Shown here in pieces: positions 49,280-64,000 of a stretch of 64,000 nt of DNA. The stretch's first letter is position 1. Each line of letters starts with the position of its first letter. The position numbers were made by a program, and so were the translations under genes. This DNA comes from Deltaproteobacteria bacterium. Its GTDB lineage: Bacteria > Desulfobacterota > Binatia > HRBIN30 > CADEER01. The notes beneath the pieces are model-generated. The model ran no database searches. It saw only the letters and a list, made by a program, of their open reading frames with translations, and was not told the DNA's origin. The stretch is taken from NCBI GenBank assembly GCA_029262455.1, contig JAJCZJ010000088.1:270273-334272 (forward strand), read 5' to 3'.

Positions 49280-50401
49280 ATGCGTACAGAACTATGCGAC
49301 AAACTCGGGATCGAGCTTCCAATCTTCGCCTTCACCCACTGCCGCGACGTCGTCGCAGCGGTCAGCCAGGCAGGCGGATTCGGGGTTCTCGGCGCCGTAG
49401 GATTCACTCCCGAGCAACTCGAGGTCGAGTGTAAATGGATCGACGAACATGTCGGAGACAAACCGTACGGAGTCGATATCGTCATTCCCGGCAAGTACGA
49501 GGGGATGGATGAGCTCGATCCGGAAAAACTCGAAGAACAACTGCGCGCCGCCATTCCCGAGCAGCATCGCCACTTCGCCGCCAAGCTCTTGTCCGACCAC
49601 GGTGTTCCGGAGCTCCCTGCCGAAGAAAAGCACCACGAGCTGCTGGGTTGGACCGCGGCGACCGCGACACCGCAAGTCGAAGTAGCCCTCAAACACGAGA
49701 AGGTACGGCTCATCGCCAACGCGCTGGGCACTCCGCCAACCGACGTGATCGACATGATCCACGATGCTGGCCGGCTGGTATCGGCGCTTTGCGGGCGACC
49801 GGAACAGGCATTGAAACACAAGGAAGCCGGCGTCGACATCATCATCGCACAAGGCTACGAGGGCGGCGGTCACACTGGCGAGATCGGCAGCCTGGTTCTT
49901 TGGCCCCAAGTCATCAAAGCCGTCGCTCCCACTCCAGTCCTTGCGGCCGGAGGCATCGGCAGCGGCCACCAGATCGCGGCCGCTCTCGCAATGGGCGCAC
50001 AAGGCGCCTGGACCGGATCTCTGTGGCTCACCGTTCGCGAGGCCGAATCACCCCCAGCACAAATGGATTCGTACATCTCCGCTACGAGTCGTGACACGAT
50101 TCGCTCGCGATCCTACACAGGCAAGCCATGCCGCATGTTGCGCAACGAATGGACCGACGCCTGGGAAGGACCGGACTCACCCGGTTACCTCGGCATGCCA
50201 CTACAAGGCATGGTGACCATGGACGCGGTACAACGCACGCACCGCTACGCTGAGAAGGCGCAGTCGGTGGCGTTCAACCCAGTCGGACAGGTCGTCGGCA
50301 TGATGAACGAGGTGCGCACCGTGCGCGACCTAGTCTACCAGCTGGCCGAAGAGTACCTCGAAGCGACCGAACGGCTACAGGGATTGACCCCGCAAGAGTA
50401 G
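49280..50401 (+). CDS. Nitronate monooxygenase (NMO/2-nitropropane dioxygenase-like; FabK-like FMN TIM barrel)
   Basis: LGIELPIFAFTHCRDVVAAVSQAGGFGVLGA, IIAQGYEGGGHTG and VLAAGGIGSG. Confidence 0.85.
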   Translation: MRTELCDKLGIELPIFAFTHCRDVVAAVSQAGGFGVLGAVGFTPEQLEVECKWIDEHVGDKPYGVDIVIPGKYEGMDELDPEKLEEQLRAAIPEQHRHFAAKLLSDHGVPELPAEEKHHELLGWTAATATPQVEVALKHEKVRLIANALGTPPTDVIDMIHDAGRLVSALCGRPEQALKHKEAGVDIIIAQGYEGGGHTGEIGSLVLWPQVIKAVAPTPVLAAGGIGSGHQIAAALAMGAQGAWTGSLWLTVREAESPPAQMDSYISATSRDTIRSRSYTGKPCRMLRNEWTDAWEGPDSPGYLGMPLQGMVTMDAVQRTHRYAEKAQSVAFNPVGQVVGMMNEVRTVRDLVYQLAEEYLEATERLQGLTPQE

Positions 50402-50457
50402 GGCTTCAGCAACGGGTGGGCGAAAGCCCACCCTCGGTCACGTCGATTCCCGACGGC

Positions 50458-51465
50458 TCAACGTGCCGCCTTCATCAACTCTGACGCCGCGTCCGCTTCG
50501 CCGGTCTCATTGTAGAGAATGATACTCGTTCGATCCGCAAAGTGGTTGCGCTGACGCAGCTTCGCACCAGCTTCTGCCGGGGTCCCGCAAACACCGATCA
50601 CCTCGAGCATGTCGTCGGGGATGAAGCTCATCATGTCGAGCCACTTGCCCTGTTTCGACAGGCGGTTGAGTTCCGGTTGAATATCGCCCCAACCGTGGTG
50701 ATCGAGCACGACCTTGTAGGCCGGTGTCGATGAGTAGAACGATAACTGCGCTCGCGCGCCGTCGCGTGCCTTGGCGAGCTGCTCGTCGTTGTTCCCGATC
50801 ATCACAATGGTCTGACAGGAGATCTGCACATCCGACTCCTGCCGACCCGACTTCACCAGGCCTTCGCGCAGCGCCGGCATCGTGACTTCATCGATGAACG
50901 ACGGCGAGTGGAGGGGGTGCAGGATCCAACCATCGGCGACTTCACCGGCAACCCGCACCATGCTCGGACCGAAGCCGGCGAGAAAGATCGGCGGTGTGCC
51001 GTGCGGGTTCTTTCCCGGGTTGAAGATCGGCGTCATGAGGGTGTGGCTGTAGAACTCGCCGCGAAAGTCGAGCTTCTCGCCATCGTTCCAGCTGCGCCAA
51101 ATGGCCCGGATCGCTTGAACGAACTCGCGCATGCGCGCGTTGGGCTTCGACCACGTCTGCGAGAATCGTCGCTCGATGTGCGGTCGAATCTGCGTACCCA
51201 AGCCGAGAATGAATCGCCCTTTGGCAATCAACTGCAGATCGTTGGCCAACTGCGCGCAGTTCATTGGGTTGCGCGCGAAGGCGATCGCAATCGCCGTCGT
51301 CAGCTCGACACGCTCGGTCGCACTCGCCGCCAAAACGAGTGGCAAAAACGGATCGTGCGGGCCTTCAAAGCTCAACACCCCATCATAGCCAAGATCCTCG
51401 GCAGCGCGCGCCGCCACTCCGGTTTCCCCGATCTCACTCGGCATCAACGCCGCTTCAAACTTCAT
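50458..51465 (-). CDS. LLM-class (luciferase-like) F420-dependent oxidoreductase
   Basis: MKFEAALMPSEIGETGVAARAAEDLGYDGVLSFEGPHDP and RFILGLGTQIRPHIE are typical of F420-dependent LLM TIM-barrel enzymes. GGAGGA RBS. Confidence 0.65.
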   Translation of the reverse strand: MKFEAALMPSEIGETGVAARAAEDLGYDGVLSFEGPHDPFLPLVLAASATERVELTTAIAIAFARNPMNCAQLANDLQLIAKGRFILGLGTQIRPHIERRFSQTWSKPNARMREFVQAIRAIWRSWNDGEKLDFRGEFYSHTLMTPIFNPGKNPHGTPPIFLAGFGPSMVRVAGEVADGWILHPLHSPSFIDEVTMPALREGLVKSGRQESDVQISCQTIVMIGNNDEQLAKARDGARAQLSFYSSTPAYKVVLDHHGWGDIQPELNRLSKQGKWLDMMSFIPDDMLEVIGVCGTPAEAGAKLRQRNHFADRTSIILYNETGEADAASELMKAAR

Positions 51466-51550
51466 CGATCCTCCAGCCGCTGCGCGGCAATTCCAAGCGC
51501 GAGCGCCGCGCGCAGTCCACTGCTCCCAACGAGTGTTCCACCGACATTGT

Positions 51551-52381
51551 TTACTTTGGCTTTGAGTCCGGCAGTTTCGGTTCTGGCGGGAGCTCTTTTG
51601 CGACACTGCCACTCCACTCCGGCTGACGGCGCTCCAAGTACGCCATTGGACCCTCGATCGCATCTGGATGCTTCATCAAGAGGTGGTGCAACTCGGTTTC
51701 GCGCCGCTCGATCTCGTCCGCCGACAATGCGAAACTCTCCCACAACAACTGCTTGCTCACCGCCGCCGACAGTGGGGCGGCATTGTCCGCAATGTCGCGT
51801 GCAATATCTCGGGCAGTGGTCAGTACATCGTCGGCTGCAACAACTCGACTCGCCACCCCGAGCTCGCCGGCCTCCTCGCCGCGAAATGTTCGACCGGTGA
51901 GCAGAATATCCGCAGCCCGCGCCATCCCGACGATCCTGGGCAGAGTCCAATGCGAGTACGCGTCCCCCATCATGCCGCGCCGGACCTGAAGAATGCCGTA
52001 CTTTCCTTCCCTCGCCATGACCCGGATGTCACATTGCAACGCCAAGGTGAGGCCCAATCCCACCGCGTGGCCGTTGACTGCAGCGATCACAGGTTTCCGC
52101 ACTCGCCAGGCCGGAAAAGCAACCGCAGCAGCACTGAAGGTGCTCTGATCCTGCGGCGCAAACGTCTCCGCTCCGCCGCTCAGATCCGCACCGGCACAGA
52201 AAGCACGGCCTGCTCCCGTGAGAATCACGACGCGCACTGCGTCATCGCCATCGCACCTTCGGTAGGCCTGCTCCAAATCAGGGCCCATGGCCCCGGTAAA
52301 GGTGTTGAGTTGGTCCGGCCGGTTTAGGGTGATCTCGGCGATCCCCCCGTCAAGGGCAAACTCGATGTCGGTGTAGCTCAT
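51551..52381 (-). CDS. Enoyl-CoA hydratase/isomerase (crotonase family)
   Basis: ITLNRPDQLNTF, VVILTGAGRAFCAGADL and AAVNGHAVGLGLTLALQCDIRV. Confidence 0.85.
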   Translation of the reverse strand: MSYTDIEFALDGGIAEITLNRPDQLNTFTGAMGPDLEQAYRRCDGDDAVRVVILTGAGRAFCAGADLSGGAETFAPQDQSTFSAAAVAFPAWRVRKPVIAAVNGHAVGLGLTLALQCDIRVMAREGKYGILQVRRGMMGDAYSHWTLPRIVGMARAADILLTGRTFRGEEAGELGVASRVVAADDVLTTARDIARDIADNAAPLSAAVSKQLLWESFALSADEIERRETELHHLLMKHPDAIEGPMAYLERRQPEWSGSVAKELPPEPKLPDSKPK

Positions 52382-52752
52382 CTAGCCCCCGGTATCCGTC
52401 GGCCTGGGTTTTCTCTTGAAATCATCGTCGTCACAATCTGTGAGTTGATCCCTCTGGCGACGACAACCAATATCCCGCCAGCACCACAACAAACAGAGAC
52501 CATCGAGCGGGGCAAATGGTTCCTCTCAATAACGAAGTCGCTCACGACCAGTTGATTGCCAAGCGGAGGGTGCTCGACCGGCCACGGTCACACTCACTAG
52601 CAGCCCGATGATAAACACGACACGCGCTGCAACTGGTCTTTTCTCGCTTGCAGACCTGTTTCTCAAGAGACTAGTCCAGCCACGTAGCGGCACTCTCGGG
52701 GCCCTCGTCCGTGGCAACGAACGACGATGTCCGCTAGGCTGCGGCGGTTGTG

Positions 52753-53733
52753 ATGAAGAAATTTCTGGCAGCCCCACCCACTCATTTTGTCTTGCTCGGG
52801 GCCCTCTTATTCGCATGGCAAAGCGTTCGTGAGGACGCTCCCAGCAGGGTCCCTGCCGACCCCGCCCGCTACCAGATCGTCGTCGAGCCGACGACAATGG
52901 AAGAACTGCGCAACAACTACCGCAAAGCAACCGGCCGCGAACCATCTCCTAAGGATGAGAAGGCACTCGTCCGCGACTATGCGGATCGGGAAATTCTCTA
53001 TCGGGAAGCACGATCCCGTGGCCTCGATCAGGCCGACCGCAGCGTCAAATGGCGCCTCGTGCAGAAGATGCAATTCCTCGAGGGTCGCGAGAACGACGAC
53101 CCTGACGATCTTTACAAAGAGGCCCTCGCCCTCGGTCTCGATCGCGACGACCTCGTGATCCGCCGCTTGTTGATCGAGAAGATGCGGCTGCTCATCAAGC
53201 TCGGCGCCGTCCGCGAGGCGCCGTCCGAACAAACCCTGGTCGAGTTCTACGAGACCAACGCCGAAGACTACCGCCAGCCGGCGCGCGTCTCCCTGCGCCA
53301 CGTCTTCCTCTCCTCCGACAAGCGAGGAGAGACGATGCACGGCGATGCCGAACAACTCCTGGAAACGCTCCGGGACTCCTCGGCAACCCCGAAAGAGGCG
53401 GTGGCGCTCGGCGACGTCTTCGCGCTCGGCCACCACCTGCGAAGCAGCTCCGAACGAAATCTGGCCAAACTTCTCGGGCCGGATTTTGCCAAGGCATCAA
53501 TCGACTTAGAAGCCGGCAAGTGGCACGGCCCAATCCGCTCCGCCTACGGCACCCACCTGGTATGGGTTGAAGACCGTACGGAGTCGTCGCTGCCCGGTCT
53601 CGAACCGGTCCGCAATCAGGTCCTGCAACGCTATCTGGCAGAACGGCGCGAGATCGCGATGCGCGAGGAACTCGAGCGAATGCGAAAAGAGTATGCAGTA
53701 TCGGTGCGAGAAGAGGGAGCCGCCCAGGGATGA
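52753..53733 (+). CDS. Parvulin-like peptidyl-prolyl isomerase (SurA/PpiC family) with an N-terminal anchor
   Basis: N-terminal hydrophobic segment and the C-terminal parvulin-like GKWHGPIRSAYGTHLVWVEDR. Confidence 0.5.
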   Translation: MKKFLAAPPTHFVLLGALLFAWQSVREDAPSRVPADPARYQIVVEPTTMEELRNNYRKATGREPSPKDEKALVRDYADREILYREARSRGLDQADRSVKWRLVQKMQFLEGRENDDPDDLYKEALALGLDRDDLVIRRLLIEKMRLLIKLGAVREAPSEQTLVEFYETNAEDYRQPARVSLRHVFLSSDKRGETMHGDAEQLLETLRDSSATPKEAVALGDVFALGHHLRSSSERNLAKLLGPDFAKASIDLEAGKWHGPIRSAYGTHLVWVEDRTESSLPGLEPVRNQVLQRYLAERREIAMREELERMRKEYAVSVREEGAAQG

Positions 53734-54734
53734 GCTTGCGATCTCTCATCTGTGTCGTCTGGATTATCGCAACAACGGCGACCTCGGGATTGGCCCACCC
53801 TCTATCTCCCACGCTGCTCGAAGTGATCGAGCGCGATTCATCTCCGGGAACATACGACGTGCGGTGGAAGACTTCCGTCCTCCGAGTACCAGGCAGCGAT
53901 CTCCAACCCGATATCCCTCAACGCTGCACCCAAGTCAGAGAAATGACCGCACGCGAGGAGGGCGACAGCCTGTATCGCGAATGGGCCATCGACTGCGGCG
54001 ACACTGGCATCGTCGGCGCCGCCGTCGGGTTCAGCGGTCTCGGACCCGCCAAAATCGACGGTTTGGTTCGCGTGCAGCTCGCCAACGGCCACACCGTGCG
54101 CGGTGTGGTTCGGCCAACAGCGCCCACCTTGACCATCACCAAGGCCCAAGGCCGCTTCGACGTTTTCGTCTCTTACGTACGTCTCGGGTTCGAACACATT
54201 CTCAGCGGCCTCGACCACTTGCTCTTCGTGTTCGGCCTGCTTCTCCTAGTCGACAACCGACGTCTGCTAATTCAAACGATCACCTCTTTCACCTTCGGAC
54301 ACAGTGTCACTCTATCGCTGGCCGCTCTCGGAGTGGTCAGCTACCCGACCCGGCCGATCGAGCTCGTCATCGCTCTGAGCGTCTTCTTCCTTGCCGTCGA
54401 GCTGAGCAGGGGAGGCAAAGGTCGGCACTCGATGATGCGCCGATGGCCGTGGGCAGTGGCGATGGGCTTTGGCCTACTCCACGGCCTCGGATTCGCTGGC
54501 GCGCTCGCACAGGTCGGACTTCCCGCACACGAGATTCCCCTGGCGCTCTTTTCGTTCAATGTCGGGATCGAGCTCGGCCAGCTCCTGTTTGTCGCCGTCG
54601 TTTTCGTCGCGCGCGCTCTGAGCCGGCCTCTGACAAACAACCTGCCGCGTTGGGCAGAGATGATCCCGCTCTATGTGATGGGATCGCTAGCGGCATTCTG
54701 GTGTTTCGAACGCTTGGCGGAGGTGCTGGCGTAA
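53730..54734 (+). CDS. HupE/UreJ-family membrane protein (Ni/Co transporter-like) with an extended N-terminal periplasmic domain
   Basis: FEHILSGLDHLLFVFGLLLL (the HupE/UreJ HxxxGxDH motif), six TM segments and a signal peptide. ATGA overlap with the PPIase gene. Confidence 0.7.
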   Translation: MSLRSLICVVWIIATTATSGLAHPLSPTLLEVIERDSSPGTYDVRWKTSVLRVPGSDLQPDIPQRCTQVREMTAREEGDSLYREWAIDCGDTGIVGAAVGFSGLGPAKIDGLVRVQLANGHTVRGVVRPTAPTLTITKAQGRFDVFVSYVRLGFEHILSGLDHLLFVFGLLLLVDNRRLLIQTITSFTFGHSVTLSLAALGVVSYPTRPIELVIALSVFFLAVELSRGGKGRHSMMRRWPWAVAMGFGLLHGLGFAGALAQVGLPAHEIPLALFSFNVGIELGQLLFVAVVFVARALSRPLTNNLPRWAEMIPLYVMGSLAAFWCFERLAEVLA

Positions 54735-54862
54735 TGCACGACAACTCATCAGCCAATCTCGTTACGACCAAACGACGCACGCAGGCCGAGCGCAGTGCCA
54801 CCACGCGCGCCAAAGTGATCGAAGCAGCCGCTGGCCCGGCCTACAACGACGGATTGCGCATT

Positions 54863-56263
54863 CTACTCAGCGACCGCAGTTGACCCATCTCCAGCGTCGA
54901 GCTCCCGCAAGATTTCGACCAGGCGCCTGATACCGGCGCCGAGCTCGGCAACAGGGACGCGTTCGTCGACCCCGTGCATGCGGCGGGTCTCCTCGTCCGC
55001 TAGAACCACCGGGACAAACCCGTACGTGGTGATTCCCTTTTCCCGAAAAAAGTGACTGTCGGTGAAACCACGCACGACGTTCGGCACAACGTACGCTTTC
55101 TCCCGCGCCGCAACTCGCTCGATGGCTCGATACAATGGAGTGTCGATACTCGACGAAGTCGGCGCAAAATTGAGCAACACCTCGATCTCGATCTCGTCGT
55201 CAATAGTTTCACGAAGACTCTGGAGAAACTCGTCGGGTGTTTCCCCCGGCAGCAAGCGGCAATCGAGCTCGGCAGAGGCTGACGCTGGAACGACATTGGT
55301 CTTGGTACTCGCTTTGAGAACCGTCATGGAAATCGTCGATTCGACAAGCGCAGCATCCTCAGCGCGGGCGAGAAACTCGGCCTTCGTCGTTTTGTCCTCG
55401 AGCGCCTTGGCGAGGTCGCTGTAGCGCGTGCGGAGCTCGCCCGTCTCGCGCTTCGCCAACGCCTTGTAATAGACATCCACTTCGGGAACGACGCGGATCC
55501 GCCTGGTGCGCGTGCGGATCTTCTCCAACGCTCGCACTAATCGCTCGACGGACGACATTCCGCGCGGCGTCGAGCCGTGACCCGGTGGTCCTTTCGCCGT
55601 GAGCTTCAACCAATAGGGCGTCTTCTCAACTCCGCTGACTTCATAGACAACCGTCCCGTCGGCGAGCCGTCGGCCGTGTCCGCCCTCGTTGAAAACAAAC
55701 TCCGGATCGCCCAACAGATCGAAATGTTTCGCGACAAACCAGCCCGCTCCAAGAGCGCCGCCGCGCTCTTCGTCTGCGGTTCCGAGAAAGATCAAGTCGC
55801 GGTCGAGTCGCTGACCGGATCGACCGATCGCCGCCATCGCCATGGCTTCGACTGTCGCCATTCCCTTGCAGTCAATCGCGCCCCGCCCATAGAGAAATCC
55901 GTCAGAGATTTCCGCGCCAAACGGTGGGTGGCTCCACTCGTCAGGATTCACCCCGACGGTGTCGAGGTGATTGAGCAGAACGATTGGACGACCTTTCCCG
56001 CTGCCTTCGAGGCGGGCCAGAATCGTCGCGCGCCCAGGCTCGGACTCGAAGATTTGGCTCTCGATCCCATGCCGATCAAACCAACCTGCCAAGTAGCGCG
56101 CCGCCGCAATCTCATTCCCCGGCGGGTTGACCGACTCGACGCGCACATATTCCTGCAGCAGCGCGGTCGCTTCACTGCTCACCGATGTCCAATCGATCTC
56201 GTCGCCGGCCGCCAAAAAAGGTAGGAGAACAAATGATGCGATAGCCCCTAGAACTCGTCTCAT
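54863..56263 (-). CDS. M20-family metallopeptidase (ArgE/DapE/carboxypeptidase-like), secreted
   Basis: Signal peptide MRRVLGAIASFVLLPFLAAG. LLNHLDTVG and GRGAIDCKG metal-binding blocks, and GTADEERGG. Confidence 0.8.
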   Translation of the reverse strand: MRRVLGAIASFVLLPFLAAGDEIDWTSVSSEATALLQEYVRVESVNPPGNEIAAARYLAGWFDRHGIESQIFESEPGRATILARLEGSGKGRPIVLLNHLDTVGVNPDEWSHPPFGAEISDGFLYGRGAIDCKGMATVEAMAMAAIGRSGQRLDRDLIFLGTADEERGGALGAGWFVAKHFDLLGDPEFVFNEGGHGRRLADGTVVYEVSGVEKTPYWLKLTAKGPPGHGSTPRGMSSVERLVRALEKIRTRTRRIRVVPEVDVYYKALAKRETGELRTRYSDLAKALEDKTTKAEFLARAEDAALVESTISMTVLKASTKTNVVPASASAELDCRLLPGETPDEFLQSLRETIDDEIEIEVLLNFAPTSSSIDTPLYRAIERVAAREKAYVVPNVVRGFTDSHFFREKGITTYGFVPVVLADEETRRMHGVDERVPVAELGAGIRRLVEILRELDAGDGSTAVAE

Positions 56264-56484
56264 CGCGGGATACTTAGCCAAAAACTGTGCAGTGAAGCAA
56301 AGCTCAGAGCGGCATACGCGCTTCGCACACTCGAACCAGCGGGCTGGAACCCTATCTACCCGAGGTCTACCCGTACCAAGGGCTCGTCTCACGACCATCT
56401 TCGTACTCCCAGCGAAAGTTGGCATCGAAGCTGCCCGCGACTACGTCGTCCACTGCCGTAGGCATTCCGTATCGGTCCCTCTGC

Positions 56485-57093
56485 TCAAGCCGGAATCCGC
56501 ACGCTCTTTCGCGCCGTCTCGACGACCCCGCGAGAACGACAATCGGGCAGGTGATCGTTGACCAAGCCCATCGCCTGCATGAAGGCATAGGCCGTCGTCG
56601 GACCAACAAAGGTCCAGCCGCGATTGCGCAGGTCCGAGCTGAGCTCCTTGGATCGCGGCGTCTGCGAGACCACCCCCTCGAACTCCCGCCGATCCTCGAA
56701 CTCCCAAAAATACGCCGCCAGGCTACCTTTCTCACCGACGAGATCGATGGCACGGCGCGCATTGTTGATCGTCGACTCAATCTTGCCGCGGTGCCGCACG
56801 ATCCCAGCATCCTGCAACAAGCGCTCCACACTCCGAGAATTGAAGCGGGCCACCTTCTCGAACTCAAAGTTCTTGAAGGCCCTCCGAAAGTTCTCCCGCT
56901 TGCGCAATATCGTCAGCCAACTCAAGCCCGCCTGAAACCCCTCCAAACAAATCTTCTCAAACAAGCGGTCATCATCGACAGTCGGCAAGCCCCACTCCGA
57001 GTCATGGTAGTCGACATACTGCTCATCATCACCGCACCACCAACACCGCCGAACACCATCCGCACCCACGATCGTCTTACCGACAAAGCTCAT
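56485..57093 (-). CDS. tag: DNA-3-methyladenine glycosylase I
   Basis: RCWWCGDDEQYVDYHDSEWGLP and EGFQAGLSWLTIL are Tag signatures. The C-terminal Cys/His zinc ligands are present. Confidence 0.85.
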   Translation of the reverse strand: MSFVGKTIVGADGVRRCWWCGDDEQYVDYHDSEWGLPTVDDDRLFEKICLEGFQAGLSWLTILRKRENFRRAFKNFEFEKVARFNSRSVERLLQDAGIVRHRGKIESTINNARRAIDLVGEKGSLAAYFWEFEDRREFEGVVSQTPRSKELSSDLRNRGWTFVGPTTAYAFMQAMGLVNDHLPDCRSRGVVETARKSVRIPA

Positions 57094-57132
57094 TCATTCC
57101 CTCTCGATCGCACCGCCGATCGCCAAAAGAAG

Positions 57133-57226
57133 AAACCGCAGATGAGCGCTGGTGAACGCTGATAGTCTTCAATATTTTGAGTCGTAGCCACCCTTGTCAG
57201 CGTTTATCAGCGTTCATCTGCGGTTT
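57133..57226 (-). terminator. Intrinsic terminator of the acyl-CoA synthetase gene: imperfect ~23-bp inverted repeat (AAACCGCAGATGA...TCATCTGCGGTTT) followed on the minus strand by a TTTCTTCTTTTGG tract
   Basis: Seen directly in the sequence. The hairpin starts right after the stop codon (57225) of the minus-strand gene. Confidence 0.45.
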
Positions 57227-58850
57227 AAGAAGGAAGCTCATACCCCTCAAACTGCTTACGCAACTCCAACTTCTGAATCTTTCCCGTCGCGGTGTGCGGG
57301 ATCTCGTCGACGAAGGCGACGTCATCCGGCATCCACCACTTCGCGATCTTGCCTTTCATGAACGACAGCACGTCCTCCTTCGAGGGACTGGCTCCTTCTG
57401 CGGGCACGATGATCAAGAGCGGTCGCTCATCCCATTTCGGGTGGTAGACACCAATAACGGCGGCCTCGGCAACTCCCGGATGGCCGACCGCAACGTTCTC
57501 GATTTCGATCGACGAAATCCACTCGCCACCGGACTTGATCACGTCTTTGGCGCGGTCGGTGATCTGCATGAAACCGAGCTCGTCCAAAGTCGCCACGTCG
57601 CCGGTGTCGAACCATCCCTCATCGTCGAGTACCGTACCGCCTTCGCCTTTCAAGTATGACGCCGCGATGGCCGGACCCCGAACCATCAGATGACCGAAGG
57701 CTTTGCCATCGCGCGGCAACTCCTTGCCGTCGTCATCCGTGATCTTCATCTCGACGGTGTACATCGGACGGCCCTGCTTGACCTTGATGTCCATGCGCTC
57801 ATCAAAGGTCAGGTCCTCCATGCCAGACTTGAATGAGCCCAAGGTGCCGATTGGGCTCAGCTCGGTCATGCCCCACGCATGCGCTACATCCACTTCGTAG
57901 TCGCGCTCAAACGCCTCCAGCATCACACGCGGCACGGCCGAGCCTCCGATCACCACACGCTTGAGATGCGGTAACTTCGAGCCCGTCTTTTCGAGATGCT
58001 GCAACAGCATCGACCAAACCGTCGGCACGGCCGCCGTCACCGATACCTTCTCTGTGTCGAGCAACTCGTAGATGCTCGCTCCGTCCAGTTTCGGCCCTGG
58101 CATGACCAATTTGCAGCCGGCCATCGGACCGGCGAAGACCAAACCCCAAGCGTTGGCGTGAAACATCGGAACGACCGGTAGGATGTTGTCGACACTGCGG
58201 GCGCCGATTGCATCCGGAGCGTTCCCGGCCAGGCCGTGAATTACATTCGAGCGATGTGAGTACACGACACCCTTCGGGTTGCCCGTAGTCCCCGACGTGT
58301 AACACATCCCGCTGGCATCGGTCTCGTCGACTGGAACCCACGCGAAGTCGCCGCTTTCCGCACCAACCAGCTCCTCGTAGCAATGGCAATTCGCCAGCTT
58401 TGTATCTGGCATGTGGGCGCGGTCCGTCATCAAGACGTAACCCTTGACCCCCGGCAACTGATCTTGAATCGCTTCCAGGATCGGGACGAAAGTCGTGTCG
58501 ATGAGCAGGAGCTTATCTTCCGCATGGTTGATGATGTAGACCAACTGCTCGGCGAAGAGCCGCGGATTGAGGGTATGGCAAACAGCGCCGACCCCCATGA
58601 TCGCATACCAGGTCTCGAAGTGGCGGTGCGTATTCCAGGCCATGGTTGCAACGACGTCACCCTTGGCGACGCCGAGCTTCTGCAAAGCCTGCGCGAGTTT
58701 TCGCGAACGCAGATGGAGCTCTGCGTAATTCGTACGGTGAATCGGTCCCTCTACGGTCCGCGTCACCATCTCGCGCTCGCCATGCCACTGCGCCGCGTGG
58801 TCGATGACCGAGGTCACGACCAACGGCCAATCCTGCATCAATCCGTTCAT
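57225..58850 (-). CDS. Acyl-CoA synthetase (AMP-dependent fatty-acid--CoA ligase, medium/long-chain)
   Basis: The AMP-binding motif [19 protein letters not shown] and the C-terminal GEWISS/ATGKIQK blocks. AAGGAG RBS before the ATG at 58850. Confidence 0.85.
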
Positions 58851-59098
58851 CAGGTCCGTCTCCTTACATCCTGTTCCGCACCTCCTCCCATAGAGCGCCG
58901 CCGCCAGCAACCGCAACGCGCAAAGCGCGGCGCCACAGCATCGCTGGTGCGAAAAAGAACCGGCAAACGTCCAGTTTGCGACGCCGCATAACAGGTAGAA
59001 ACCCCGGTCGCTGGCGAAAATCTACCGTGCACTACGGTCCAGCCAGGTGGCATGGCCGCTGCATATCCAAAGAGATAGTTCAGCAGTGGAATGAATCC

Positions 59099-60331
59099 GT
59101 GAGAGTCCTACTTTCCGTCGCAATACTCCTCGCTTGCGCACCAGCTGTGTCAGCACGCATGTTGTTCGTAGCCGGCCAACCCGTACCGGTATCGTCGCGG
59201 CCACGATACCTCGCGACCGACGATATCGATCAGGACGGCCTTGCCGACGCCATTGTCGTCAGCACGCGCGACACTCTCTCGATCCTCTACGGCTCCGAGA
59301 CCTCGCAGACGCTCTTCAGCGCGCCGCAGGTCGTCACCTTCGGCCGCCGTTTGCGCAGACCCAACACCGGTGACGTCAACGCCGACGGAATTACCGACAT
59401 CGTCGTGCCCGACGAAAGCAGCGGGGCCGTGTGGGTCCTGCTCGGCGAGGGAACTCGCGGCTTCGCCGCACCGCGGCTTATTCCTGTGGGAAGCAAGATG
59501 AGGCCATACGCAGTCGCGATCGGAGACATCGATGGCATCGGCGGCAACGATATCGTCGTCGGCGAACGGCGCAGCGGGCAAATCCACGTGCGACTCAACA
59601 CCGCCGCTTTCTCCTTTCGCAACGGGCCGGTCATGAACACCCGGGGCGGACTCGAACAGATCGAATGTGAGGATCTAAACGGCGACGGTCTGCCTGAACT
59701 GATCAGCGTCTCAGCCGGGCGCGTCGGACGCGTTTCAGTATTCCCCGCCACGGCACAGGCCAATGGTTCCCTCACCTACGGCGACCCGATGTCATTCAAC
59801 ACCGATTCGACCAAAGCGAGCTTCGCCACCGGCGACTTCGACAACAATGGTACGCGCGATCTAGCCGTCCTTTCCAGAACCCGCGGCGGCAAGAACAGCA
59901 TCCTCGGCATCAGATCGACGAACCCGGATCACAGTGTCGGCGCGTCTTTGTCCCTCGAAGCACCCTGTCCCGATCAGGGCCGCCGCCGCTTCTGCAGAGC
60001 CCGAGGCATCGCGGCGGCCGACTTCGATAGAGACGGCATCATCGACCTGGCGATCGGCCTGCGCAATCGCGCCGTCCTCGGAGCCTTGGGAACGAGACGT
60101 TCCGGCGTCGTCGCAATCATGCGCGGCCGCGGCGACACCTTCGTCGCCGCCGACAGCGCCCCGTGGCTGGAAAAAGCACCCGCCGAGATCGACTCAGGCG
60201 ATTTCGACGGCGACGGCCGCCCCGACATCGTCGCCATCAGCAAGTCGAGCAGCCTCCTACAAGCAATGCGAAACATCTCCTCACCCGGCCCAACCGTGCG
60301 CAGAAAGCGCCGCGTCGAGCCTCGCAGGTAA
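59099..60331 (+). CDS. Secreted FG-GAP/VCBS-repeat beta-propeller protein
   Basis: A GTG start gives the signal peptide MRVLLSVAILLACAPAVSA. Repeated DxDxDGxxD Ca-binding loops (TDDIDQDGLADAIVV, GDVNADGITDIVV, EDLNGDGLPELISV, GDFDGDGRPDIVAI). Confidence 0.6.
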   Translation: MRVLLSVAILLACAPAVSARMLFVAGQPVPVSSRPRYLATDDIDQDGLADAIVVSTRDTLSILYGSETSQTLFSAPQVVTFGRRLRRPNTGDVNADGITDIVVPDESSGAVWVLLGEGTRGFAAPRLIPVGSKMRPYAVAIGDIDGIGGNDIVVGERRSGQIHVRLNTAAFSFRNGPVMNTRGGLEQIECEDLNGDGLPELISVSAGRVGRVSVFPATAQANGSLTYGDPMSFNTDSTKASFATGDFDNNGTRDLAVLSRTRGGKNSILGIRSTNPDHSVGASLSLEAPCPDQGRRRFCRARGIAAADFDRDGIIDLAIGLRNRAVLGALGTRRSGVVAIMRGRGDTFVAADSAPWLEKAPAEIDSGDFDGDGRPDIVAISKSSSLLQAMRNISSPGPTVRRKRRVEPRR

Positions 60332-60364
60332 GATCCTATTATCGCGAGCTTTGAGGATGGCGAG

Positions 60365-60652
60365 TTACAGCTTCGGCGATCGCTGGGCACTGTGCCAGAC
60401 GCGGACGATCTCAAGCGGGTCGGAGTCCGGCAAAAAGATTATTTGGTACGAGTAAACCGGGTGAAACCGGTACTTCGGATCAATCTTCGGCCGCGTGTAG
60501 CCAATACGGGGTTTTGCGGCCAAGAGACGAAATGCGTCGTGGAACTCTTGCTCGACACGGAGCGCCGAATCGAGGTTGTCCTCGGCGATGTACGCGAAGA
60601 TCTCAGCGACATCGACCTCAGCTCGCGGGGCGAGCCGATAGGTCTTGCTCAT
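60365..60652 (-). CDS. parE: ParE/RelE-family type II toxin
   Basis: 95 aa. YQIIFLPDSDPLEIVRVWHSAQ is the typical ParE C-terminus. ATGA overlap with the upstream antitoxin gene. Confidence 0.8.
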   Translation of the reverse strand: MSKTYRLAPRAEVDVAEIFAYIAEDNLDSALRVEQEFHDAFRLLAAKPRIGYTRPKIDPKYRFHPVYSYQIIFLPDSDPLEIVRVWHSAQRSPKL

Positions 60653-60894
60653 TGCCGCTGACGGAAAGACTCCGCTAGCTCCGCCATGTGCTGGCGAAAC
60701 TGCTCTTCGGTGACGTACTCGCCCCGGTCGAGCTCGGCCTGACCTTCAGCGATCGCTTCGCGAATCGCATCGGTTTCGGCCTCTTGCTGCTCCCGTTGGT
60801 CGAGCAACTCGGTGAGGTATTCTTCGGCCGACGCGTAGCGGCCAGCCTTGACTGGCGCGGCAAGTCGGTCCTCGAGTTTCTTGTCCAGCTTCAT
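60649..60894 (-). CDS. parD: ParD-family type II antitoxin
   Basis: MKLDKKLEDRLAAPVKAGRYASAEEYLTELLDQRE...AIAEGQAELDRGEYVT is the ParD (PF03693-like) pattern. Confidence 0.7.
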   Translation of the reverse strand: MKLDKKLEDRLAAPVKAGRYASAEEYLTELLDQREQQEAETDAIREAIAEGQAELDRGEYVTEEQFRQHMAELAESFRQRQ

Positions 60895-61001
60895 GCCGGT
60901 AGAGTCTACAACAGGTTCGGAAACGTGAAAAGCGTCGTATCCCAATTGAGTTCAACAGGGGAGGCCCTTGATCACACAAGCCCGGGCTGGGAAAAGCTTC
61001 C

Positions 61002-61139
61002 GGCGATTTCGACGGCGACGGCCGCCCCGACATCGTCGCCATCAGCAAATCGAGGAACCTCTTACAGCAATGCGAAACATCTCCTCACCAGGGCTCACGG
61101 TGCGCAGAAAGCGCCGCGTCGAGTCGCGACGGTAAGATC
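61002..61139 (+). pseudogene. Duplicated, frameshifted copy of the last 138 bp of the FG-GAP gene (copy B; ~90% identical to 60197-60334)
   Basis: Direct alignment: GGCGATTTCGACGGCGACGGCCGCCCCGACATCGTCGCCATCAGCAA...GCGCCGCGTCGAG...GGTAAGATC. Copy B has a 1-nt deletion that breaks the frame. Confidence 0.6.
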
Positions 61140-61194
61140 TCTATCGCAATCTGCGCCCTTGCCTCACTCAGCGGACCTGGTGCGGAAAAAGAGT

Positions 61195-61343
61195 CAACAC
61201 GAAGACACAAGGACACGAAGACACGAAGATTGCGCGACTTGTCATGGCCGCACGGACCCTTTTCGAAACGGAGTCCATGGAGTGGCTAGCTCCTGGTCCG
61301 AAAAACCCTAACAACCCCTTTGTGTCTTCGTGTCTTTGTGTTG
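61195..61343. repeat. AT-richer inverted-repeat element: arms built from GAAGACAC/AAGGACAC octamers (61195-61228 versus 61314-61343) enclose an ~85-nt structured spacer. A T-run follows on the minus strand
   Basis: Seen directly in the sequence. It could be a MITE-like element, a structured sRNA or a minus-strand terminator. Confidence 0.4.
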
Positions 61344-61458
61344 AAAATAACGAACCACCGGTTCATCTGAGATGCCACTGAGACTGTGCTCTGACGGTGC
61401 GGGACGACGCAATCCCGTTACCTAGAGGCTCGGCCGTAGGCAATCAAATCACCGCGCC

Positions 61459-61527
61459 GCGAAACATTTCGTCTCCCGTCCCAACGGTATGCAGAATGCG
61501 CCGCGTCGAGCTTCGTGGGTAAGATCC
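61459..61527 (+). repeat. Third, more degenerate copy (copy C) of the FG-GAP gene 3'-end repeat
   Basis: GCGAAACAT...GCGCCGCGTCGAGCTTCGTGGGTAAGATCC aligns with 60266-60336 at ~80% identity. It shares the 3' flank ATCTGCGCCC with copy B. Confidence 0.45.
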
Positions 61528-61986
61528 CCGATCTGCGCCCGCTGCCCCAATTGTTGAGGTTCCTGCTACGGCCGAGCAGGGTTAGAGAGTCACTAGCCCA
61601 GGGTTCGAACCAGGGCCGACCCAGGGCTTCCGATGGTTGAGACGAACAGCAATGTGAAGTGGCTGTGCGCGATTCGATGAATCAACCAGTCTCAACCCGG
61701 CCCTGCGCAATGCGTCCGCAGATCGATCGATGCTCCCTCGGATAAACCTGGGCCCTTCGACTACAGCCCATGTCGGAGCAAGTCGGCATCGCGGGTCCCT
61801 GTCCCGGCAAAAGCAGAGGAGTAGTTTCCTCGGCAAAAACGAGATCTGCCCCTTAGCGGCGTAGAGTCTCCTCAGCAGCCTCCCGTAGGTTTCCCCCGAG
61901 CTGGCCTGGGACACACGACTTGGCAACACGCAATGTCAGCGGCATAACGGTAGCCGAGAAGAACGTCCCCGACGAAAGGCCAATGT

Positions 61987-63990
61987 ATGGCAAAAAGCAA
62001 AGCCTATCAGCGAGCGAAACAGAAAATCGAAGAGGCACGAGGCTCAGCGGCCTGGCGACTCGATCTCGCAGGGTTGGGTCTCACAGCTCTCCCTGACTCC
62101 CTGGCTCAGCTCACCAACTTGCAGAGCCTCTATCTCAGCTCCAACCAACTCACCGCTCTCCCTGACTCCCTGGCTCAGCTCACCAACTTGCAGAGCCTCT
62201 ATCTCAGATCCAACCAACTCACCGCTCTCCCTGACTCCCTGGCTCAGCTCACCAACTTGCAGATCCTCGATCTCAGATCCAACCAACTCACCGCTCTCCC
62301 TGACTCCCTCGCTCAGCTCACCAACTTGCGGATCCTCTTCCTCAGTTCCAACCAACTCACCGAGTTACCGGCGTCGCTGCGGCACTTGGCCGACAACGCC
62401 GTATTGCGCGAGCTCTACCTTCACGATAACCCGGCCCTCGAACTGCCCAGCGAGTTGCTGGGGCCAGAGCACGCACGGGACACTTACAATCCACCGAAGC
62501 CGCCAAAGGAGATCCTGGATTACTACTTCTCAACCCGCGGTGACGCCGGGCAGGCGCTGCGGGAACTTCGGCTGATCGTCGTCGGCCGCCCCAAGGTTGG
62601 GAAGACGACTCTGATCAAGCGACTGCGCGGCCATCCGATGGACCCGCACGAGGCCGAGACCCACGGCATCGACATTCTACCGATGGATCTGAAGTGTCCG
62701 GACGGCCCCCTCCGAGCGCGGGTCTGGGACTTCGGTGGACAGCACGTGTTGCATGCCATGCACGAGTTCTTTCTGCGCAACCGCTGCCTCTACCTGTTGG
62801 TGGTCGAACAACGCGCCAACGACGTCGAACGGGAGCTGACGTACTGGCTCCAACTGATCCGCAGCTACGCTGGCGATGCGCCGGTGGTCGTCGCGCTGAA
62901 CCAGAGCAAGGGTATCCCACGCTCCTTGGCGAGAGCAGCGCTGGAGCGAGACTACGGGCCGATTCTCGCCTGGGTTCCCACCGAGTGCGCGTCGGAAGAC
63001 GAAGTCCCCGGTGCCGACGCCACCATCGAGGCGCTGCGCGCTGCACTCACCACAACCGCAGCCGCGATGCCCGAGCCGAAGAAGCTTTTTCCGAAGAAGT
63101 GGTTGGCGATCAAGCAATGGCTAGAAGCCATGCAAGAGCCATACCTGGACTACGCCACCTACGCCGAGCATTGCGCAGAGTTGAACGAGCGCGATCCGCA
63201 GCAGCAAGCCGCCCTCGCAGCCGCCATGGATGAACTCGGCGTGGCACTCAACTACGCCCGCGATCCCCGCCTGCGCGACACCACCGTGTTGCGGCCGAAC
63301 TGGCTGGCCAACGGCATCTACGCGTTGCTGCGCGCCAACATTCTGGCGCCCGAACCGCTGGCGCCTGAGGGCGTGCTGACAGAGTCAATGGTCGGGACAG
63401 TCCTGAAGGTTGCGGGCCAGGCGAAGGTACTCGATGCGGCCGAGTACCCGCCCGAGAAGTGGTCGTTCTTGCTGCGGCTGATGAACCTCTTCCAGCTGAG
63501 CTTTCCACTCGACGAAGAGGGCGAGCGCTATCTAGTGCCGGCCTTGCTACCCGCCGATGAGCCGGTGGACAGCGGCGAACCGGGCGGCCCGAACCAAGTG
63601 AAGCTGCGCTACGAATTCGACGTCGTCCCAGGCCCGCTGATCGGGCGCTTGCTCGTACGCCTGTTCGCGATCATCGACGGCCGCAAGGTTTGGCACCGCG
63701 GTGCGCGGCTGCGCTACGGCGATGCAAAAGCGCGCGCGTGGGCCGATCTGGAAGAGAAGTACGTCTTCGTCAGCGTTGCCGGCGACGCGAACGATGCCGC
63801 GGAGCTGCTCGAGATGATTCGCGAAACGCTCAAAGAGTTGTTCCGTGAATACGAACGACTGCGCGTCGTCGAGCAGTGGTGGCACGGCGACAACTGGGTG
63901 CCGCGCGGCACCCTGGAGCAGATCGGCGTGCTAGCCCGCGAAGTGGTCAGCGAAGGCAAGCAACCGGGCGGACAGGAGGTGCGCGATTAA
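61987..63990 (+). CDS. ROCO-family GTPase: LRR - Roc (Ras-of-complex G domain) - COR
   Basis: At least five LRRs (LTALPDSLAQLTNLQSLYLSSNQ). The P-loop RLIVVGRPKVGKTTLIKRL and switch II WDFGGQ. A long COR-like C-terminal region. Complete ORF ending in TAA at 63990. Confidence 0.85.
   Translation: MAKSKAYQRAKQKIEEARGSAAWRLDLAGLGLTALPDSLAQLTNLQSLYLSSNQLTALPDSLAQLTNLQSLYLRSNQLTALPDSLAQLTNLQILDLRSNQLTALPDSLAQLTNLRILFLSSNQLTELPASLRHLADNAVLRELYLHDNPALELPSELLGPEHARDTYNPPKPPKEILDYYFSTRGDAGQALRELRLIVVGRPKVGKTTLIKRLRGHPMDPHEAETHGIDILPMDLKCPDGPLRARVWDFGGQHVLHAMHEFFLRNRCLYLLVVEQRANDVERELTYWLQLIRSYAGDAPVVVALNQSKGIPRSLARAALERDYGPILAWVPTECASEDEVPGADATIEALRAALTTTAAAMPEPKKLFPKKWLAIKQWLEAMQEPYLDYATYAEHCAELNERDPQQQAALAAAMDELGVALNYARDPRLRDTTVLRPNWLANGIYALLRANILAPEPLAPEGVLTESMVGTVLKVAGQAKVLDAAEYPPEKWSFLLRLMNLFQLSFPLDEEGERYLVPALLPADEPVDSGEPGGPNQVKLRYEFDVVPGPLIGRLLVRLFAIIDGRKVWHRGARLRYGDAKARAWADLEEKYVFVSVAGDANDAAELLEMIRETLKELFREYERLRVVEQWWHGDNWVPRGTLEQIGVLAREVVSEGKQPGGQEVRD
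62080..62355 (+). repeat. Four near-identical 69-bp tandem DNA repeats encoding the LRR units of the ROCO gene
   Basis: Seen directly in the sequence: CTCACCGCTCTCCCTGACTCCCTGGCTCAGCTCACCAACTTGCAGAGCCTCTATCTCAG(C/A)TCCAACCAA is repeated with 1-3 substitutions per unit. Confidence 0.8.
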
Positions 63991-64000
63991 ACCTCGGAAC

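Follow-up and report, generated by a model that had tools for sequence, protein, structure and literature searches.

Three FG-GAP gene ends in series point to a probable successive 3'-end displacement at an FG-GAP/ogt junction in an uncultured bacterium

The 3' end of an FG-GAP/VCBS repeat gene is present three times in series and in the same orientation near the end of the window, by which we mean the whole 64,000-nucleotide stretch of DNA that was analysed. The explanation we favor, with a probability of roughly 0.6, is that two successive recombinational displacements of the gene's 3' end stacked three haplotypes of one convergent FG-GAP/ogt junction on top of each other. The locus is most likely an ordinary record of gene transfer and not a new integration system. 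As such it offers a readable record of how chromosomal DNA may be gained without a dedicated integration enzyme, with three alleles of one junction standing serially and both joints intact.

Results

Table 1. Features of the FG-GAP 3' region and their positions in the window
Feature	Position	Strand	Evidence or remark
Intact FG-GAP/VCBS repeat gene	59099-60331	+	410 aa; signal-like N-terminal sequence
Copy A: last ~175 nt of the FG-GAP gene, stop and ~15 nt of spacer common with copy B	60158-60347	+	Alignments
parDE block, including 77 nt upstream of parD	60348-60971	-	Probable cargo of the newest event
parE	60365-60652	-	Pfam ParE_toxin 4.8e-14, 53.2 bits (cut-off 23)
parD	60649-60894	-	Pfam ParD_antitoxin 5.2e-05, 24 bits (cut-off 21)
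Copy B: displaced FG-GAP 3' end, ~175 nt, stop and spacer	60972-61150	+	89% identity to A
Hairpin element with tandem-octamer arms (ACACGAAG / ACACAAGG) and a loop of ~89 nt	61193-61347		RNA folding
ogt 3'-end fragment: last 4 codons, stop and 5 nt beyond	61438-61457	-	Directly left of copy C
Copy C: displaced FG-GAP 3' end, last 69 nt, stop and ~27 nt of spacer	61458-61553	+	84% identity to A
Distal inserted block, start: 433-nt non-coding stretch, then ROCO gene	61554-63990	+	Pfam
ROCO gene (LRR-Roc-COR)	61987-63990	+	LRR_8 1.3e-24, Roc 1.3e-21, COR-A 4.6e-27, COR-B 2.8e-13

The gene that heads the region is the allele functional at present. Its product matches the Pfam families FG-GAP_3 (1.8e-33) and FG-GAP (8e-22), is probably exported, and is identical to protein P0001 encoded on a 623,648 bp NCBI contig; the orthologs keep the tail NISSPGPTVR..RRR of this protein. 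A blastn search with positions 60100-60400 as query against the whole 64-kb window confirmed the two additional gene ends that the first-pass annotation had described, namely copy B (matched at 60999-61144, 89.1% identity over 147 nt, E 9e-50), in which the frame is shifted by a 1-nt deletion, and copy C (61459-61527, 84.1% over 69 nt, E 4e-16), and it returned no further copy in the 64 kb. The fall in identity from A to B to C agrees with the earlier reading of serial acquisition with growing decay, and copy C would be the oldest displaced end. When a 15-nt deletion is bridged, copy B reaches left to ~60972, beyond the start first assigned to it.

All three copies end alike at GGTAAGATC. Past the stop, copies B (61150-61159) and C (61531-61540) carry ATCTGCGCCC within a common flank that reads ATCTGCGCCC..TGCC.CA, so that the two spacers are related, and copy A is without it, as had been noticed before. 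The left boundaries differ, lying at -175 nt from the stop in copy B and -69 nt in copy C, and each of them adjoins unrelated DNA. At the first joint, between positions 60971 and 60972, DNA from upstream of parD stands against copy B. At the second, between 61457 and 61458, a 3'-end fragment of ogt stands against copy C; this fragment is 19/20 identical to the real ogt 3' end (contig L088, reverse complement, 1111-1130; z 9.1, 0 of 200 shuffles as good), and the sole mismatch is synonymous in ogt. A weak protein-level leftward extension of copy C was dropped in favor of this nucleotide match. Neither joint shows clear microhomology, and a tblastn search of the spacers for hidden pieces of ogt, ada or FG-GAP pseudogenes found none besides the known copies. 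The ogt-to-FG-GAP joint at copy C reads as a permuted, illegitimate joint. Base composition across the region deviates only mildly and is not decisive.

Between copies A and B lies the complete parDE pair reported in the first-pass annotation, with both domains above their Pfam cut-offs. parD is placed upstream of parE on one strand with a 4-nt overlap, which fits the gene order of type II toxin-antitoxin systems, and 60365-60894 is, as judged from the sequence, an intact, predicted ParDE type II module. The nearest ParE homolog is 56% identical and comes from an unrelated genome, where its context is uninformative, and PADLOC and PHROGs gave no matches for ROCO, ParD, ParE or ORF168, a gene of the distal block. 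Addiction to the predicted module could disfavor recombination events between copies A and B that would delete the newest segment.

Substitution pattern among the three gene ends

The substitutions between the copies are of the coding type. Copies A and B differ by 14 substitutions, 10 of which are synonymous (pN/pS 0.14, pS 0.29), and none of 5000 random placements had as many synonymous changes (P <0.0002); pN/pS is 0.39 for A and C (P 0.034) and 0.36 for B and C (P 0.004), with just 14-19 substitutions behind each comparison. Because the differences between A and B are mainly synonymous, the copies come from distinct working alleles, and A, B and C diverged inside working genes of different lineages.

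This pattern bears on the possibility that the FG-GAP/ogt junction was duplicated locally in tandem, by slipped or unequal recombination, and that parDE and the ROCO block were inserted later into the duplicated spacers and the working gene was changed by allelic replacement or gene conversion. The permuted ogt-to-FG-GAP joint is exactly as expected of a duplication junction, and the flank sequence common to B and C points the same way. Duplicates start out identical, however, and the dead copy then decays neutrally, for which a pN/pS of at least ~0.5 is expected, a value that is rejected for A and B (about P 0.014, binomial estimate), so that the observed ratio and pS are a misfit unless an extra allelic replacement is invoked. 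Such a history also requires that three or more units were duplicated, that cargo was inserted twice independently and that large stretches were deleted. An intermediate stage is found in no relative, and we regard this history as unlikely.

The residue differences between the tails are minor (P/L, P/S). This matters for the idea that copies B and C are silent cassettes, maintained so that gene conversion can draw on them to diversify the C-terminal tail of a secreted FG-GAP protein. In its favor, an expressed gene with a probably exported product is followed by partial copies that share its direction and differ at a few residues of the tail. Just two fragments exist, one with a shifted frame, their tails scarcely differ, the relatives carry no such copies, and the fragments are bordered by parDE and a piece of ogt with no recombination signal, all of which makes a role as silent cassettes extremely improbable. 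A 47-nt block identical in A and B, the longest exact repeat, was considered as a crossover site and set aside; it encodes the family's most conserved motif and is near-invariant in distant orthologs too.

Related genomes and independent assembly

In six relatives (L003, L004, L085/L086, L087, L089 and L090) a convergent ogt lies directly 3' of FG-GAP; the spacer between them measures 6-300 nt and contains neither a further gene-end copy nor protein-coding cargo. It follows that the present genome has extra DNA at this position. The parDE module is missing from the position in 6/6 relatives, and none of the six (0/6) has a ROCO gene within 10 kb of FG-GAP, which supports the proposal that ROCO belongs to the inserted stretch. 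The relatives also lack the extra gene ends, in line with the expectation that these are not parts of a paralogous gene family. The six syntenic relatives have no variable protein-coding cargo at the site and so lend no support to a clade-wide insertion hotspot. The 10 kb upstream of FG-GAP is syntenic with the relatives and recombinase-free.

No genome or contig turned up with any of the three haplotypes presumed to be donors. A metagenome scan for the invariant repeat core gave no matches, and a scan of the genome collection, by ortholog alignment and generic FG-GAP motifs, gave distant paralogs of 23-34% identity and no syntenic locus among the matches listed.

A Logan assembly of the same sample holds contigs 100% identical to 49323-60210 and 60223-61340. 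The second of these (L001) covers parDE, the joint of parD-upstream DNA with copy B, copy B itself and the hairpin; the second joint lies outside the Logan contigs and is supported by the deposited contig only. A metagenome assembler might have joined three co-existing strain haplotypes serially into a chimera, given that the copies resemble alleles of different strains, each with different downstream DNA, that the contig is metagenome-assembled and that the Logan assembly is broken at the repeat. Against this, the sequences that meet at either joint are unrelated and offer a graph assembler no common k-mer to follow in error, the first joint, parDE, copy B and the hairpin stand on a single independent contig at 100% identity, and the longest exact repeat, at 47 nt, is shorter than a sequencing read. 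We consider a chimera very unlikely.

The hairpin between copies B and C

The arms of the hairpin lie at ~61193-61229 and ~61316-61347, and its RNA fold has a minimum free energy of -62.2 kcal/mol (z -5.8). The right arm is 19/23 identical to the hairpin in the FG-GAP/ogt spacer of relative L090 (z 7.4, 0 of 1000 shuffles as good) and the left arm 19/27 identical (z 3.3, 7 of 1000 shuffles as good), with the same substitutions on both arms. The same holds for a second pair of hairpins at another shared position (25/30 and 29/30 identical), whereas no relatedness is seen between hairpins that occupy different positions of a single genome. Judged by this homology, the hairpin between B and C is a native element of the FG-GAP/ogt spacer and not cargo; the long inverted repeat that had been reported there is present, and its description as a cassette falls away. 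Since the hairpin is homologous to the one at the same position in L090, 60972-61457 represents a complete displaced older FG-GAP/ogt junction.

As a separate observation, at least 120 metagenome contigs contain the arm motif, and the arm sequence of the family is conserved across bacteria of 41-71% GC. The family is widespread; we found no published description of it, and Rfam searches of the region and of 19 hairpin loci returned only sub-threshold matches to generic hairpins. This side observation may outweigh the gene-end finding in importance.

Distal boundary

The far side of the insertion is known from a 3.4 kb contig (L088) that was reached via the genome's Ada protein. The distal block begins with the ROCO gene, the product of which has the domain order of a ROCO protein (N-terminal LRRs, Roc GTPase, COR), and probably runs past the window to ORF168, with ogt directly beyond; ORF168 shares the 623,648 bp contig with ogt/ada, and this together with the synteny in relatives suggests that L088 adjoins the window. 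Homologs of ORF168 are found on 166 plasmids and 2 phages, with genes for recombinases and integrases in their vicinity.

No copy of the FG-GAP end was found in the 1.1 kb adjoining ogt (blastn, word size 7). In agreement with the earlier remark that no integrase is visible, no recombinase was found at 49-64 kb (Pfam) or in L088, including the same 1.1 kb; one is possible between 64000 and L088, where it would serve the ROCO block only.

These results can be set against the proposal of serial site-specific integration, in which elements carrying a surrogate FG-GAP 3' end are integrated by a tyrosine or serine recombinase at an att site in the gene end, so that the gene is made whole again and the older end becomes distal, and in which the small units of today are decayed or trans-mobilised elements. 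The topology of gene end, cargo and gene-end copy, with all copies ending at the same sequence, is what such integration would leave, and the coding-type divergence also fits gene ends borne on elements. The plasmid and phage homologs of ORF168 beside ogt are a further point for it, as is the stretch between 64000 and ORF168/ogt, which lies outside the sequence read. Yet the left boundaries at -175 and -69 give no constant crossover point, one joint is permuted, the distal boundary at ogt has no gene-end copy, the interval from B to C is the native spacer, whose hairpin has a homolog at the same position in L090, no recombinase is found in the parts read, and the units are just ~620 and ~310 nt long. 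Restoration of the gene end at an att site is thus not borne out, and we regard serial site-specific integration as quite improbable.

Discussion

Successive 3'-end displacement, the reading we prefer, would proceed as follows. One side of a DNA fragment from a close relative recombines by homology, the simplest location being FG-GAP itself or the sequence upstream of it, and the other end is joined illegitimately inside the 3' end of the resident FG-GAP; in an equivalent route, the fragment would form a circle and enter through one crossover within the gene's 3' end. By both routes the complete gene end that is brought in would take over as the working one, and the resident end would be shifted downstream as a dead fragment. 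The oldest haplotype may have been FG-GAP(C), the block from ROCO to ORF168, and ogt. A fragment from a 'plain' relative would then have arrived, consisting of FG-GAP(B), the hairpin spacer and the first 12 nt of the ogt 3' end, displacing 69 nt of C and creating the joint between 61457 and 61458. In a last event, a fragment of FG-GAP(A) and parDE would have pushed 175 nt of B downstream, giving rise to the joint between 60971 and 60972.

One might go further and view the junction as an integrase-independent capture site, at which the hairpin drives breakage and illegitimate joining, haplotypes and parDE-like modules accumulate repeatably, and toxin-antitoxin addiction fixes the arrivals; we hold this to be a decidedly doubtful extension. 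The locus also carries a caution, namely that direct repeats of a gene end around cargo do not by themselves identify an att site or an integrative island.

Comparison with known systems

Chromosomal integron arrays and integrase-less attC clusters (CALINs) often carry toxin-antitoxin cassettes, and the locus resembles them in having small units, one of them a toxin-antitoxin module, separated by a recurring repeat of ~70-140 nt. Unlike theirs, the repeat here is coding, evolved under purifying selection and has no hairpin fold; when folded as DNA, the three copies and the reverse strand had z values of 0.01, -0.98, 0.41 and 0.55 against shuffles, and integron-like cassette accretion is not upheld by a repeat that lacks an attC-like fold. 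No intI, attI or attC features were found, and the array is headed by a conserved FG-GAP gene with a recombinase-free upstream 10 kb.

Genomic islands and cis-mobilizable elements that insert at the 3' ends of genes or tRNAs carry an att that restores the gene. As at the present locus, direct repeats of the gene end bracket acquired DNA, tandem accretion is possible and the newest end is the one that works. In contrast to such islands, the locus has no recombinase in the parts read, no constant crossover point and no distal repeat, and one of its units is a native spacer.

Single-crossover integration of a gene-end fragment leaves direct gene-end duplications of 109-950 bp that flank the insert (Amarir-Bouhram et al. 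2011, PMC3240628), and homology-facilitated illegitimate recombination is described in de Vries and Wackernagel 2002, Prudhomme et al. 2002 and Meier and Wackernagel 2003, as these are cited in PMC3240628 and PMC5361080. Both kinds of event combine one-sided homology with a joint to unrelated DNA, as proposed here, and we match the copies of 69 and 175 nt to the 109-950 bp duplications. Those events differ from the present case in having been produced in the laboratory, with Acinetobacter, Streptococcus, Pseudomonas and E. coli, whereas here scars are seen in an uncultured bacterium, with no clear microhomology.

[quoted passage not shown] 2017, PMC5361080; Jackson et al. 2009 as cited in that paper). 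In those arrays, as at this locus, an intact gene is followed by orphan 3' fragments of earlier alleles in the same orientation (copies B and C, both on the + strand), and the orphans derive from diverged functional alleles and not from local duplication, as the ratios of 0.14, 0.39 and 0.36 indicate here. The incoming DNA is anchored in the conserved part of the gene with the illegitimate joint at its far end, which is probably also the case here, and new cargo comes to lie beside the gene while older material is moved downstream, with no integrase. The locus departs from these arrays in that its tails are homologous (RNISSP.PTV.R.RRVE) and carry neither a Pfam toxin domain nor an immunity gene, its cargo is parDE, and one displaced unit bears the end of a downstream convergent gene. 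It works like a 3'-end displacement array but is no polymorphic-toxin locus, and the comparison indicates that 3'-end displacement, mainly known at toxin loci, shapes an ordinary gene too and can import a toxin-antitoxin pair.

Gene-end copies and the parDE module

Direct reading of the window together with a whole-window comparison showed that the 3' end of the FG-GAP gene is repeated twice downstream in the same orientation, and no further copy of it was found within the 64-kb window. Copy B reaches leftward to approximately 60972 across a 15-nt deletion and has its reading frame broken by a 1-nt deletion, while copy C is more decayed than B; the sequence ATCTGCGCCC after the stop codon is common to B and C and absent from the working end, copy A. 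The parD and parE genes overlap by 4 nt, and the gene downstream of the copies was identified by Pfam as encoding an LRR-Roc-COR (ROCO) protein. The LRR region of this protein is encoded by a tandem array of 69-nt units, the central copies of which are 93% to 97% identical at the DNA level, suggesting that the repeats were recently expanded or homogenised.

A Logan assembly of SRR15505514, the sample behind the window, contains contigs 100% identical to 49323-60210 and 60223-61340, and the run from parDE across joint 1 (60971|60972, parD-upstream DNA against copy B) through copy B and the hairpin was thus independently assembled. The three gene-end copies and the parDE module described in the first-pass annotation are confirmed. 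That the arrangement is an assembly chimera is unlikely, since both joints link unrelated sequence and so offer no shared k-mer to mislead an assembler; joint 1 is present on an independent Logan contig, while joint 2 (61457|61458, ogt fragment against copy C) is known from the deposited contig only.

Features of the FG-GAP/ogt locus, its relatives and the hairpin family
Feature	Location	Strand	Remarks
FG-GAP gene	window 59099-60331	+	
Copy B	window 60999-61144	+	89.1% over 147 nt, E 9e-50
Copy C	window 61459-61527	+	84.1% over 69 nt, E 4e-16
parE	window 60365-60652	-	intact, above Pfam cut-off
parD	window 60649-60894	-	intact, above Pfam cut-off
ogt match	window 61438-61457		directly left of copy C
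B-to-C hairpin	window 61193-61347		
Second hairpin	window 57133-57226		directly after AMP-binding gene stop codon
ROCO LRR array	window 62011-62424		
FG-GAP/ogt hairpin	L090 3928-4085		fills entire spacer
tag/AMP-binding hairpin	L003 7917-8092		just downstream of a stop codon
Further hairpins	L003 11189-11267, 11325-11450		in FG-GAP/ogt spacer
Further hairpins	L003 13544-13678, 20008-20187		just downstream of a stop codon
Early FG-GAP stop	L085 11195-11270, L089 7219-7290		
PIN/PhdYeFM pair	L085 5302-5945, L089 1326-1969		between HupE and M20 peptidase genes
VapBC pair	L004 1145-1776		
PIN fragment	L087 6773-6961		
ORF168	L088 2329-2835	- in L088, + in window orientation	adjoins ogt
Solitary repeat	L088 reverse complement 140-190		in AT-richer stretch at left end
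Acido-Lenti-1 matches	L110 237-434, L151 237-282, L172 440-484		sub-threshold

The FG-GAP/ogt junction in relatives

A protein search with FG-GAP returned an identical protein on an NCBI contig of 623,648 bp and seven orthologs at 46% to 57% identity, comparison of which gave ...NISSPGPTVR..RRR as the tail of the family's native C-terminus. The gene order AMP-binding (-), FG-GAP (+), ogt (-), ada-alkA (-) and 4HBT (-) was found in all six ortholog loci compared (L003, L004, L085/L086, L087, L089 and L090), with an FG-GAP/ogt spacer of 6 to 300 nt, and the gene order upstream in L085 is that of the window. Because the two genes directly adjoin in the six relatives, the extra DNA of the window genome sits exactly between FG-GAP and ogt. 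None of the six carries an extra copy of its own FG-GAP end or a protein-coding gene in the spacer; the copies are therefore no paralogous family, and these six loci give no support to a hotspot across the clade. The three stacked haplotypes nevertheless differ in what follows FG-GAP, with three downstream contents, and this points to variability among very close relatives.

In the closest ortholog (L085 and L089), the FG-GAP gene stops early at ...NLSSPD*, and the sequence past the stop resembles, by eye, a remnant of the basic tail, from which the C-terminal tail would seem dispensable or decaying in this lineage. Toxin-antitoxin genes are scattered through the same syntenic neighbourhood of the relatives as presence/absence differences, including a PIN/PhdYeFM pair that is absent at that place in the window, a VapBC pair and a PIN fragment.

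The B-to-C unit and the hairpin family

The 20 nt directly left of copy C (GGCAATCAAATCACCGCGCC) agree at 19 positions with the 3' end of the genuine ogt gene in this genome, taking in its final four codons, its stop codon and the next 5 nt (z 9.1; none of 200 shuffles as good). The order of ogt end and FG-GAP end at joint 2 is the reverse of the native one, and the joint connects two unrelated points and is not a product of conservative att-site recombination. The inverted repeat between B and C forms a stable hairpin (-62 kcal/mol, z -5.8), the arms of which are homologous to those of the L090 hairpin, with 19/23 identical for the right arm (z 7.4, 0/1000 shuffles as good) and 19/27 for the left (z 3.3, 7/1000), and with the same substitutions on both arms. 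Given the ogt end beside copy C and the homologous hairpin at the same position in L090, 60972-61457 is an older junction displaced in full, comprising FG-GAP end, spacer, hairpin, spacer and ogt end. The unit had first been read as a cassette; it holds no cargo, its hairpin being native to the FG-GAP/ogt spacer.

The second hairpin of the window (arms AACCGCAGATGAGCGCTGGTGAACGCTGA, z -10.6) has a counterpart in L003, both in the tag/AMP-binding spacer, and their arms agree at 25/30 and 29/30 positions (z 11 and 19.5). Within one genome, by contrast, hairpins from separate positions are unrelated to each other. Further hairpins with other tandem-repeat arms were observed in L003. The B-to-C hairpin is one member of a widespread family: TCAMCACRRAGRCACMRRGACACGRAG, the consensus of its arms and those of L090, matches at least 120 metagenome contigs (L094-L213), in comparison to a chance expectation that we estimate at far less than 1, and about half of the matches listed have an inverted partner within 400 nt. 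Among the matches listed, element length runs from 70 to 350 nt; the termini are TTCACCAC...GTGGTGAA, each arm consists of three tandem octamers, and the loops differ in both length and sequence; the host contigs have 41% to 71% GC, and some carry two or three elements, in tandem in L152, which has three. No Rfam family was above threshold for the elements, and no description of the family sequences was found in the literature searched. Either mobility or a structural role behind genes, for instance as terminators or stabilisers of RNA, may account for them. In three contigs the Rfam Acido-Lenti-1 RNA gives matches below its gathering score of 37 (26 to 33 bits) within approximately 60 to 400 nt of hairpin arm matches, which could reflect chance or a linked element.

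The ogt side of the insertion

ParD, ParE, ROCO, FG-GAP, Ada and ORF168 are all encoded on the contig of 623,648 bp. The source genome's Ada protein (P0129) led to L088, a 3.4-kb Logan contig from the same sample, which does not overlap the window ending at 64000. In window orientation, L088 carries an AT-richer stretch followed by a 168-aa ORF (ORF168) and by ogt and ada, both on the minus strand, and no copy of the FG-GAP end was found in the 1.1 kb adjoining ogt. ORF168 had no match in Pfam, PHROGs or PADLOC; full-length homologs at about 50% identity were found on 166 plasmids (Rhizobium, Sinorhizobium, Klebsiella, Escherichia and others) and in two Burkholderia phages, where they lie in accessory DNA with Abi genes and a recombinase or integrase gene close by. 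ORF168 is uncharacterised and linked to mobile elements, and from the settings of its homologs the block adjoining ogt is plausibly derived from a mobile element. L088 also contains three tandem units of GGAGCACCTA, arm-like but with no inverted partner, and these may represent one half of a further hairpin element truncated where the contig ends.

Divergence of the copies and proposed mechanism

Copies A and B differ by 14 substitutions, of which 10 are synonymous (pN/pS 0.14; this number of synonymous changes was reached in none of 5000 random placements). The pN/pS was 0.39 for A and C (randomisation P 0.034) and 0.36 for B and C (P 0.004), in comparison to at least about 0.5 expected for a dead duplicate decaying in place, and by our own binomial estimate in-place decay is rejected for A and B at about P 0.014. 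The values indicate that most of the divergence accrued while each copy still terminated a working gene, in separate lineages that are closely related. Local tandem duplication of the junction accounts for the permuted joint, but it leaves the pN/pS of 0.14 unexplained unless allelic replacement is added.

Serial site-specific integration at the FG-GAP 3' end, as favoured in the first-pass annotation, fails for B and C in four predictions: the crossover point is not constant, no repeat lies at the distal boundary, cargo is not present between every pair of copies, and no recombinase is visible in the parts read. It remains only for the block from ROCO to ORF168, if a recombinase lies between 64000 and L088. 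The other reading offered there, integron-like accretion of tandem cassettes, is rejected, since folding of the repeat gives no hairpin (z from -1.0 to 0.55) and a conserved gene stands at the head of the array. Little speaks for a silent-cassette variation system.

The simplest account of the locus is one kind of event occurring twice. Homologous recombination at one end, most economically placed in FG-GAP or upstream of it, would bring in DNA from a close relative, and the opposite end of that DNA would be joined illegitimately within the 3' end of the resident FG-GAP gene; equivalently, the fragment could circularise and enter the gene end through a single crossover. The incoming end would become the working end and the resident end would be shifted downstream. 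In the first event, a plain junction on a fragment ending 12 nt into ogt would have displaced 69 nt of allele C, which then stood before the ROCO to ORF168 block, and in the second, FG-GAP(A) with parDE would have displaced 175 nt of allele B; the side of the homology, the order of the events and the pathway are those that we infer. Two such displacements would explain why the left boundaries differ, why the joint is permuted and why a native spacer lies between B and C, and also the coding-type pattern of divergence, the greater decay of C than of B and the absence of a gene-end copy beside ogt. Addiction to parDE could, by inference only, make it less likely that the newest segment is lost when A recombines with B.

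[quoted passage not shown] On this account the locus is a new example of a known process, instructive and not surprising to a specialist: it shares with the T6SS, rhs and CDI arrays the displacement of 3' ends by recombination, and differs from them in that FG-GAP is a non-toxin gene and the cargo is a toxin-antitoxin pair.
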